Source: a virus
Length of the DNA stretch: 64,000 bases
Strand: one strand, 5' to 3'
IMG/VR virus record: IMGVR_UViG_3300046492_000199
Shown here: piece after piece, positions 39,724-45,917 of the stretch
Layout: every line of letters begins with the position of its first letter
Position numbering within the stretch: position 1 is the first letter of the stretch
Notes under the pieces: generated by a model
Databases searched by the model: none
The model's input: only the letters and a program-made list of their open reading frames with translations
What the model was told of the DNA's origin: nothing
Translations under genes and position numbers: made by a program

Positions 39724-39873
39724 TTAAATACTTAGACCTTTACCATGACGTGTAGGGACGTTATAAAAACTGATAAGAGTTTCATACATGGCTTGGACCA
39801 GATCATCACGTTCAGCCGATGGGGCGGACGCTCTAATGGTCTTCATTACTTTATTAAATTCATTTAATTCCAT
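39724..39873 (-). CDS. 49-aa hypothetical protein
   Basis: MELNEFNKVMKTIRAS...; track start lies inside tRNA-His. Confidence 0.55.
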   Translation of the reverse strand: MELNEFNKVMKTIRASAPSAERDDLVQAMYETLISFYNVPTRHGKGLSI

Positions 39874-39892
39874 AACTTTTGTCCTATGTTTT

Positions 39893-39968
39893 TGGACCGT
39901 CTTCCTTGAGTTGAACAAGGGTATCGCGATCCACAATCGCGCGCTCTAACCAATTGAGCTAAAGACGG
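39893..39968 (-). tRNA. tRNA-His(GTG) lacking G-1, with T73
   Basis: CCGTCTT/AAGACGG stem, loop TT-GTG-GA, CCA. Confidence 0.9.
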
Positions 39969-40320
39969 AAGTTTTTAATTTTTCTCTGGCTTTACGTTTA
40001 TATTGCTTGGATTTCTCATTCCAAGCAAGTCGGCAAGCATCACATCTACACTTTCTGTGTCTATACATTCCCATGGTGCCGTGTTCTGGAGCGTGCTTTT
40101 CGGTATGACACTCGATACATAATAGCTGGCATTTATTTATTTCATCTATCAGAGTGTCCCAAGGATAGGACCAATTAGATGTAACATTAAATTTTTTATT
40201 GGTTGGGTCTATATGATCTACTTCTAGTGCTTCAGTAGAACCGCAGTGAACACATTTATTTCCTAAATGATTTAATAATTTTTCTTTAAATTGCTTATAG
40301 TATTTTACGTTTTTCTTCAT
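39946..40320 (-). CDS. HNH endonuclease
   Basis: CVHCG...LEVDHIDP...CQLLCIECH; C-terminal HG...CRC..C motif. Confidence 0.9.
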   Translation of the reverse strand: MKKNVKYYKQFKEKLLNHLGNKCVHCGSTEALEVDHIDPTNKKFNVTSNWSYPWDTLIDEINKCQLLCIECHTEKHAPEHGTMGMYRHRKCRCDACRLAWNEKSKQYKRKAREKLKTSVFSSIG

Positions 40321-40332
40321 AATATTTATATT

Positions 40333-40407
40333 TGGTTTGCGAGGCTAGACTCGAACTAGCAACCGCCTGATTCAAAGTCAGGTGCTCTACCATTAAGCTA
40401 CTCGCAA
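40333..40407 (-). tRNA. tRNA-Gln(TTG)
   Basis: CCTGA-CT-TTG-AA-TCAGG; T1-A72; CCA. Confidence 0.9.
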
Positions 40408-43533: not shown

Positions 43534-43608
43534 TGGCACGACGCCGTGGTCTCGAACCACTCTCTTCAGTTTTGGAGACTGAGGTTTTACCAGATAAACT
43601 ATCGCCGC
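43534..43608 (-). tRNA. tRNA-Trp(CCA)
   Basis: TCAGT-CT-CCA-AA-ACTGA, G73, CCA; two A.G mismatches at the acceptor/T junction. Confidence 0.85.
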
Positions 43609-43892: not shown

Positions 43893-43968
43893 TGGTGCAG
43901 CTTCTTGGTTCCGCCCCAAGCTCTCTTGTGCTTCAAACAAGCGCTTTCACTAGATTAGCTTAAACTGC
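43893..43968 (-). tRNA. tRNA-Phe(GAA), atypical T loop
   Basis: CTTGT-TT-GAA-GC-ACAAG; T loop GGCGGAA; CCA. Confidence 0.82.
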
Positions 43969-44902: not shown

Positions 44903-45229
44903 TTACGCGTCAATCCACTTAAAAATGTCTTCCCTAGTGATTTGCTTATCACCGTACTTATTAACCATAGCGAGGACGCGAGGCACAATAACAACCACTA
45001 GCTTATTGCTGCTGTGGATTTTTACCTCGACAGACTTGTAAGCCCTGCCATCTAGGAATGCACGAGCTAAGAAAGTGGCTCGATTTTCATTTCTAACTTC
45101 CCATGTTCTGTGTTGTCTCAGGGACCAGAACGCGGGCTTGTTTTTTGCTTTTTGTTTCCTCTCTTCAAAGCGGATAATTTTTGCTTCTTCAGAGAGGTGC
45201 TTAGATTTAACTTTAAGTTCGATACTCAT
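44903..45229 (-). CDS. hypothetical basic protein
   Basis: 108 aa, GGAG RBS. Confidence 0.75.
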   Translation of the reverse strand: MSIELKVKSKHLSEEAKIIRFEERKQKAKNKPAFWSLRQHRTWEVRNENRATFLARAFLDGRAYKSVEVKIHSSNKLVVVIVPRVLAMVNKYGDKQITREDIFKWIDA

Positions 45230-45382
45230 TTGTATTCTCCATTAGATAATTTTTTGTCATTAGTCAAGTGTTTATTTTAACTAAATTAGGCGGGCCTCTG
45301 ATACAGGTCGCACCATTATCTATTGAAGTAACGCACTTTAGGACTCAGCTAAAAATAATCATTATCATTTTCCTATGTTATT

Positions 45383-45458
45383 TGGTGCGCCTACGTGGAA
45401 ACGAACCACGTTAGGGAGATTTGAAGTTTCCTGCATAACCCATACATGCTCTAGGCGC
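45383..45458 (-). tRNA. tRNA with TCA anticodon (opal/UGA suppressor type)
   Basis: GCGCCTA/TAGGCGC, GCAT/ATGC D stem, GGAAA-CT-TCA-AA-TCTCC, CGTGG-TTCGTTT-CCACG, A73, CCA. Confidence 0.8.
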
Positions 45459-45758
45459 TGATATTCTAATTAAAGCTTCGAGCAACTCATCATATTTAGC
45501 TGCGCTCTCTGCCTTAGCTTTTGCGATAAGAGGAATACAATCTTCCACATATCCCAAAATGTTTTTCTGGTTAATTCTACTCTCGCCTCTGAATTCACCA
45601 TCGGCGGCGTACTCACCAGTTATATAGTATTCTCCGTCTCGGTATCCCGGTCCAGAGCCGATATAGTTCCAAAGCTCGTGTATCGTAAGCATTGGGCCGT
45701 TTGAATAATCGCCAGAGTTATAAAGAACGTTTCTGTTGCAATCATAAAGCTGTGGCAT
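45411..45758 (-). CDS. hypothetical protein; 3' end overlaps the TCA tRNA
   Basis: 115-aa ORF with AAGGG RBS. Confidence 0.65.
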   Translation of the reverse strand: MPQLYDCNRNVLYNSGDYSNGPMLTIHELWNYIGSGPGYRDGEYYITGEYAADGEFRGESRINQKNILGYVEDCIPLIAKAKAESAAKYDELLEALIRISAPRACMGYAGNFKSP

Positions 45759-45837: not shown

Positions 45838-45917
45838 AGGTCTGAGTGGCAAGGATTTGAACCTGCGACCTTCCTCTTCATTGGTGAGGACGCTCTGTCC
45901 AGCTGAGCTACACCCAA
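45838..45917 (-). pseudogene. tRNA-like element with 9-nt anticodon loop, ends ACCT
   Basis: GCTCAGCTGGACAGAGC D arm, TCCTC-ACCAATGAA-GAGGA, GCAGGTTCAAATCCTTGC. Confidence 0.65.

Follow-up and report, generated by a model that had tools for sequence, protein, structure and literature searches.

Suppressor tRNAs are known from phages that have reassigned a stop codon, including crAss-like, Lak, Agate and Jade phages, and the study that describes them (Borges et al., bioRxiv 10.1101/2021.08.26.457843) also saw a TGA suppressor in one phage that uses the standard code. 'Orphan' suppressor tRNAs have also been reported in the standard-code phages Summit (PMC9022506) and phiKp24 (PMC8386662), with a target identified in neither. 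A different set of described systems consists of attenuators and arrest leaders, such as ErmCL/ermC, SecM/secA, MifM and the RAPP-type leaders ApdA, ApdP and ApcA, where a short uORF led by an SD lies upstream of the regulated gene. The R-A/G-P-P motif of the RAPP-type leaders is a documented ribosome-arrest motif (PMC7897499, PMC10951233).

The locus examined here lies in a 64,000-nucleotide stretch of viral DNA, referred to below as the window, and shares features with both sets of systems. Like the suppressors of recoded phages and the orphan suppressors, it includes a tRNA with a stop-reading anticodon and presumed charging by a host synthetase. However, recoded phages carry many in-frame stops in late genes, whereas in the window TGA and TAG serve as ordinary stops and the candidate target is one nearby leader. 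As in the attenuators and RAPP-type leaders, a short SD-led uORF precedes a gene, the leader includes an R-[A/G]-P-P motif, and the leader is predicted to mask the downstream SD until a ribosome within the leader frees it. The proposed input signal is stop read-through by a dedicated tRNA, in contrast to antibiotic or secretion activity in the attenuators and arrest-peptide systems, and the gene that would be regulated encodes a small helical protein rather than a protein-localisation component (Sec/YidC) as in the RAPP-type systems. No account of a suppressor-gated leader in phages turned up in a full-text search of the literature. We consider it probable that the window tRNA is a working opal suppressor, that its nearby target is the UGA in the leader, and that read-through there turns on the neighbouring gene for a 108-aa protein.

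The tRNA gene (positions 45383–45458, minus strand) is genuine. ARAGORN reported a 76-nt tRNA gene with the anticodon tca (45424–45422), and the full RF00005 model of Rfam matched with 37.8 bits (E 8.6e-07, cut-off 29) when a small region was searched; at default filters over 9 kb the gene was missed. The stems comprise a perfect 7-bp acceptor stem (GCGCCUA/UAGGCGC), a 4-bp D stem, a 5-bp T stem and a 5-bp anticodon stem that includes one A.C mismatch. The 7-nt anticodon loop, C-U-UCA-A-A, has U33 and a purine at position 37, as expected of an opal suppressor, and also fits the context of efficient suppressors described by Yarus's extended anticodon. The variable loop has 4 nt, and the gene encodes both A73 as discriminator and the CCA end. 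The cloverleaf had been drawn in the same form, mismatch included, in a first-pass annotation made from the letters alone, and ARAGORN, RF00005 and direct reading all bear it out. The same annotation had called the gene an opal-suppressor-type tRNA distinct from tRNA-Sec, and this classification holds. ARAGORN labelled the gene 'SeC', and the UCA anticodon is indeed common to tRNA-Sec (RF01852), but the variable loop of 4 nt, the 7/5 acceptor/T stems and RF00005 as the best member of the clan all set the window tRNA apart. The exact pattern of the tRNA was not found in IMG/VR. The tRNA and the leader that follows it were found as identical copies in four other metagenome assemblies from other samples, which rules out a sequencing error.

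The gene is part of a minus-strand array (39.5–47.4 kb) of 17 tRNAs detected by ARAGORN, which includes the separate tRNA-Trp(CCA) that had been noted earlier (43534–43608). Several other features of this region were recorded. Just upstream of the suppressor tRNA and its flanking sequence, a tRNA-like gene with a 9–10-nt anticodon loop (45839–45917, minus strand) has counterparts in other loci (L005:2398–2476, L001:4899–4980 and L174:2834–2910; conservation 81–95%). The identity that ARAGORN assigns to it varies by relative (Ile-aat, Val-cac or Asn-att), and the window copy is missed by the Rfam default filters while the L005 copy scores 48.9 bits. A further Rfam tRNA (43896–43968, minus strand, 39.4 bits) was missed by ARAGORN and is probably tRNA-Phe(gaa), from synteny with L001. 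A small YjiS/DUF1127-like ORF (PF06568; 46447–46689, minus strand) lies within the array, upstream of a stretch in which no genes were called. At 39724–40371 (minus strand), the gene for an HNH endonuclease (124 aa) has a TAG stop, behind which a 70-aa ORF continues in frame; this could be a relic of amber read-through or mere chance.

The phage has no close relative by DNA in GenBank, where the only matches were tRNA-sized. The portals of Microcystis, Erythrobacter, roseobacter and phiCbK-type siphophages are 40–48% identical to that of the phage, which belongs to a T5/phiCbK-like siphophage lineage. Closer relatives were found in IMG/VR, with portals 77–92% identical and tRNA arrays collinear with that of the window, and the closest of these are amber at the same slot. 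Between tRNA-Pro and tRNA-Thr, a CUA tRNA is found in L001, L002 and L005, and also in L004 (genome G2), where it was called by neither tool and was read by eye. The first-pass annotation had pointed out that a sense anticodon in relatives would mark the UCA as a point mutant or an error, but in the relatives the slot holds CUA or UCA and never a sense anticodon.

The 108-aa gene was used as an anchor to collect 18 IMG/VR and 80 metagenome loci. Upstream of 83 unique homologues of this gene, the nearest tRNA was CUA in 44, a CUA-like tRNA with an odd loop in seven, UCA in one and a tmRNA in two, while CUA accounts for 41 of the 496 unique tRNAs in those loci and UUA for none. Five of the CUA tRNAs were missed by ARAGORN and recovered by Rfam. 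The same tRNA(CUA)–gene pair is present in two cultured phages, DSS3_MAL1, which infects Ruegeria pomeroyi, and the Synechococcus phage BUCT-ZZ01, which infects Synechococcus elongatus PCC 7942. The window tRNA belongs to a widespread family of phage nonsense suppressors, most of them CUA, located directly upstream of a gene of the MSIELKVK family. In some slot tRNAs (L032:336–412, L045:122–196, L100:1993–2068, L102:3732–3807 and L016:886–959) the anticodon loop is 6 or 8 nt long and includes CCUA or CUAA, for which ARAGORN gives 2- or 4-base anticodons; in L032, L045, L100 and L102 the leader also ends in TAG.

The leader uORF (45264–45368, minus strand) lies between the tRNA and the 108-aa gene. 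It is preceded by an SD (AGGA, 45374–45371) and starts at an ATG at 45368 or 45362. The codons ATG ATA ATG ATT ATT TTT AGC TGA read MI(MI)IFS up to a UGA at 45347–45345, cognate to the UCA anticodon and referred to here as the gate, which is followed by VLKCVTSIDNGATCIRGPPNLVKINT and a second UGA (45266–45264). In its 3' part, including IRGPP, the leader is homologous to those of L001 and L005, which are gated by UAG. Behind the tRNA of L001 the sequence reads AAGGA-N7-ATG GGC GAT AAC ACG TAG ... AGA GGG CCA CCT TAA, so that its leader is MGDNT-amber-LEKTLILSIRGPP-ochre, and that of L005 is the same but with IRAPP. In about 45 unique loci an SD-led uORF of the form M-x(0–8)-TAG-x(3–13)-PP-stop was found, ending 47–68 nt before the main ATG. 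The order of the module is a nonsense-anticodon tRNA, an SD-led uORF with a matching early stop and an MSIELK-family gene. The window leader departs from the amber form in that no stop follows Pro-Pro; two TAAs of the relatives have been lost and the second UGA closes the leader.

Two other loci with a UCA tRNA were found. The leader of L174 reads MYDFS-TGA-IKTKIRDGPP..., with a closing TGA that overlaps the main ATG, and that of L061 (ATG TGA GTA TGT AAG CCA CCT TAG) reads M-TGA-VCKPP. The gate is TGA in all three UCA loci (the window, L174 and L061) and TAG in about 34 CUA loci, with no exception (Fisher 1.3e-4, a value that overstates independence, the loci being phylogenetically related). 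The anticodon and the leader stop change together, and the anticodon of the window tRNA is under selection. The window and L174 share one cassette lineage, while the body of the L061 tRNA comes from yet another subfamily, which indicates at least two independent switches to UCA. No further gate of this type was found in the window, where a search for TGA-gated leaders returned just out-of-frame matches within genes or matches over a tRNA. A consensus scan detected no promoter between the leader and the 108-aa gene, and in G4 and G5, two relatives that carry a CUA tRNA, the Pth2 gene has a normal start and no early stop.

It looks as if a single cassette carrying the tRNA together with the leader's 5' half was exchanged. 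blastn comparisons showed that the segment 45278–45755 (minus strand), which spans a 115-aa ORF, the UCA tRNA and the stop-containing 5' half of the leader, could not be aligned with the CUA cassette of the closest relatives, while the flanks are 93–95% identical. With the UCA cassette of L174 it does share homology (73%). The last 16 codons of the 115-aa ORF (45411–45758, minus strand) overlap the 5' part of the tRNA, and the ORF travels with the UCA cassette. Its L174 homologue, 76% identical and likewise upstream of the UCA tRNA, was the only other one found, and IMG/VR contained no relative. From these comparisons, the locus appears to record a switch from amber to opal at one syntenic slot between near-identical flanks.

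Variants of the leader region were also seen in other members of the collection. In L017, L052, L037, L038, L047, L070, L074, L075, L079 and L098, the short gated leader is replaced by a longer upstream ORF (...KAKGQ...STKG...IEDWAPP) that has no internal stop and ends with Pro-Pro-stop about 51–63 nt before the main ATG, and in this subgroup the CUA tRNA is located 0.45–1.4 kb further upstream. L030 has a 'skipping-rope' RNA (RF02924; positions 2146–2238, 53.7 bits against a cut-off of 36.7) placed after the CUA tRNA and before the leader.

Folding of the leader RNA suggested how read-through could be connected to the gene downstream. A predicted anti-SD (45315–45329, minus strand), in the part of the leader that is translated only on read-through, pairs with 45250–45237 in both the minimum-energy and the centroid folds, and would sequester the SD region of the 108-aa gene (45237–45250, with GGAG at 45240–45237). 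The predicted pairing covers all four SD core bases in the window and at least two in most other loci, and the fold is moderately better than shuffles (z-score −1.63). In many loci the codons CCN-CCN-TAA, encoding Pro-Pro-stop, are themselves the predicted anti-SD, and their conservation may therefore reflect a constraint at the RNA level. The window codons for Arg-Gly-Pro-Pro (45288–45299, minus strand; IRGPP at 45302–45288) form a RAPP-like arrest motif, as do those for IRAPP in L005. As the motif is of a documented arrest class, the missing stop after Pro-Pro need not abolish the putative stalling. The predicted anti-SD of the window lies 22–36 nt upstream of the putative stall site, a geometry unlike that of the amber loci.

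The proposed mechanism would run as follows. The leader ORF between the tRNA and the gene, with its own RBS, presents a stop matching the tRNA (here UGA) after 5 to 7 sense codons. Without suppression, ribosomes would terminate at this UGA, the downstream part of the leader would stay paired with the SD of the 108-aa gene and the gene would be off. If the charged suppressor outcompetes release factor 2, a ribosome would pass the anti-SD and reach beyond the Arg-Gly-Pro-Pro codons, and its passage would open the helix and allow the 108-aa gene to be translated. Expression of the 108-aa protein would in this way be coupled to the phage's own read-through, or the state of host tRNA and release factor would be sensed, with the genetic code unchanged. 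Several observations speak against this reading: the altered leader geometry of the window, the modest z-score of the fold, the homologues that have a long upstream ORF or a tmRNA in place of the gated leader or suppressor, the unusual core of the window tRNA, and the retention of about 14 TGA-ending genes that would likewise be exposed to read-through.

The 108-aa gene (44903–45229, minus strand), the proposed target of the leader, is conserved and belongs to a family of 1,836 clusters at 90% identity, all annotated as 'hypothetical'. The protein begins MSIELKVK and its AlphaFold2 model has five helices (pLDDT 91). Sequence and profile searches of Pfam, PHROG and PDB found no relative, structure searches (Foldseek against PDB, VIA-align wide) returned generic helical hairpins only (Z 7.4 or below), and a search of the ESM Atlas by features gave nothing informative. 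Lys, Arg or His occupies 13 of the 37 invariant or nearly invariant positions of the family, and it is a reasonable guess from the sequence that the protein binds RNA or the ribosome. Its own stop is TAG in none of 40 family members. Suppressor tRNAs and tmRNA recur as its neighbours, which suggests a role in termination or ribosome rescue. Distant homologues in L018–L021 and L123 (BUCT-ZZ01) lie directly behind a two-piece (permuted) tmRNA, and BUCT-ZZ01 has tRNA(CUA), the 108-aa-family gene and tmRNA in a row. No suppressor tRNA was present among the 24 and 26 tRNAs recovered from the tmRNA-adjacent distant homologues G6 and G7. The putative leader of L021 has an in-frame TGA, yet no UCA tRNA was present among 24 recovered tRNAs.

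The phage uses the standard code, as had been recognised from the letters. A greedy ORF set under table 11 covered 89% of the window and included 82 ORFs, ending in TAA (60), TGA (14, or 17%) and TAG (8). TGA terminates thyX, nrdI, nrdE and the NlpC/P60 gene, the four named in the first-pass annotation, together with the genes for PhoH, the tail terminator, the tail tube and the portal. Throughout the 64 kb, ORF merging and tblastn against genomes G1, G2 and G3 detected no in-frame TGA in genes supported by homology, and merging with TGA, TAG or TAA read as sense gave no homology-supported in-frame stop of any kind. The complete relatives with a CUA tRNA likewise retain TAG as 10% of their stops, and the choice of stops does not follow the type of suppressor.

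The first alternative is that the tRNA is a general-purpose suppressor of UGA stops in host or phage genes, acting in takeover, in the production of C-terminal extensions or as insurance against nonsense mutations, with the leader as a by-product or a sensor. This we regard as unlikely, though it is the rival that fares best. About 14 of the 82 window ORFs, all of them kept with their TGA, would also be read through by a UCA tRNA, with extensions of 0–54 residues, and roles of this sort were suggested in genome papers that treated the tRNAs as unexplained (PMC8386662, PMC9022506). A leader that serves as a feedback sensor would fit this reading too. Against this alternative, no extension is conserved, many of the TGA stops soon meet a second stop, and nine TGA stops are the same in an amber-type relative (G1), so it is the leader's stop alone that tracks the anticodon. 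The tail-tube gene was considered separately, as the first-pass annotation had proposed selective read-through with its TGA as an example. The idea of selective read-through was of the right kind, though the annotation missed the UGA-interrupted leader directly downstream of the tRNA; the tube gene as target finds no support. Its TGA is also found in relatives with an amber tRNA and is replaced by TAA in G2. The extension, which is 25 codons long, overlies a GC-rich hairpin and is unconserved: a TAG interrupts it in G1 and G3, and G2 lacks it.

A second alternative, which seems quite improbable, is that the gene encodes a decaying or non-translational tRNA-like RNA, such as a remnant of an amber suppressor, a decoy or a processing element, that is never charged. 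The core of the tRNA does deviate from the usual one, with G8, G14 and U58 in place of U8, A14 and A58. U58 occurs only in the window's tRNA, which also has U15 where the subfamily has A15, retains the A.C mismatch and gives the lowest Rfam score in its subfamily (37.8 versus 40–49 bits), so it could be weak. However, G8 and G14 are common to all 14 members of the subfamily and are therefore a family trait rather than decay. The nearest kin among 486 unique tRNAs is the CUA tRNA of L058, which has the same acceptor stem, G8-A9 and GCAUG...AUGC D arm, and differs by compensatory changes on both sides of three T-stem pairs and one anticodon-stem pair, with all four stems of the window tRNA intact. 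Across the 14-member subfamily, 92.5% of cells in the cloverleaf are paired and 10 pairs have changed on both sides; the covariation score was 0.486, compared with 0.136 in shuffles, and none of 500 shuffles scored as high. The UCA tRNA of L174 has a different, canonical body, but its entire anticodon arm is the same as that of the window, A.C mismatch included. The CCA end is encoded, and an anticodon that is never used would leave its match to the leader stop unexplained.

The suggestion in the first-pass annotation that the locus represents an early stage of recoding, with the suppressor acquired first and in-frame TGAs appearing later as in a code 4-like state, is very unlikely. There is a precedent in the standard-code phage that acquired a TGA suppressor beside recoded relatives (Borges et al.), and TAA dominates the stops of the window. 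However, TGA is kept in essential genes, no in-frame TGA was found in homology-supported genes within these 64 kb of the 183-kb genome, coding density does not rise under a TGA-as-sense code and the GC content is 44%, which is not low. When a purge of TGA stops was sought, just two orthologues were found that end in TAA here but in TGA in G1, as against the nine conserved TGA stops. More than 80 diverged loci of standard-code phages carry the tRNA-plus-leader module, one of them in a complete 283-kb genome with 39 TAG stops, and this points to a stable state rather than a transition. That the tRNA is a sense tRNA for a host in which UGA encodes an amino acid (code 4 or 25), for which the UCA anticodon alone speaks, is refuted by the phage's own TGA stops, many of them in ATGA overlaps, and is further at odds with the separate tRNA-Trp(CCA) and with the standard-code hosts, Ruegeria and Synechococcus, of the cultured phages that carry the module.

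Suppressor tRNAs in standard-code phages have been reported repeatedly and left unexplained, and a suppressor gating the leader would provide one of them with a specific target close by. The pairing of the UCA anticodon with a UGA leader stop and of CUA with UAG amounts to a natural swap experiment. More tentatively, the module may be a portable sensor of translation, adjustable to either stop codon, with the suppressor tRNA and its matching leader gauging how well read-through works, as a reflection of how charged tRNA and release factor are balanced during infection, and only then switching on a conserved, basic, helical protein allied to tmRNA and tRNA-repair functions in phage translation surveillance or counter-defence; the shift of anticodon and gate from UAG to UGA would then have occurred by cassette exchange. 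The amber form is directly testable in the cultured phages DSS3_MAL1 and BUCT-ZZ01. If the proposal is true, the module would be a natural gene switch run by nonsense suppression, of interest to synthetic biology, and a large uncharacterised family of more than 1,800 clusters would be pointed to as part of the control of termination in phages. The tRNAs themselves would then be regulatory rather than agents of recoding.
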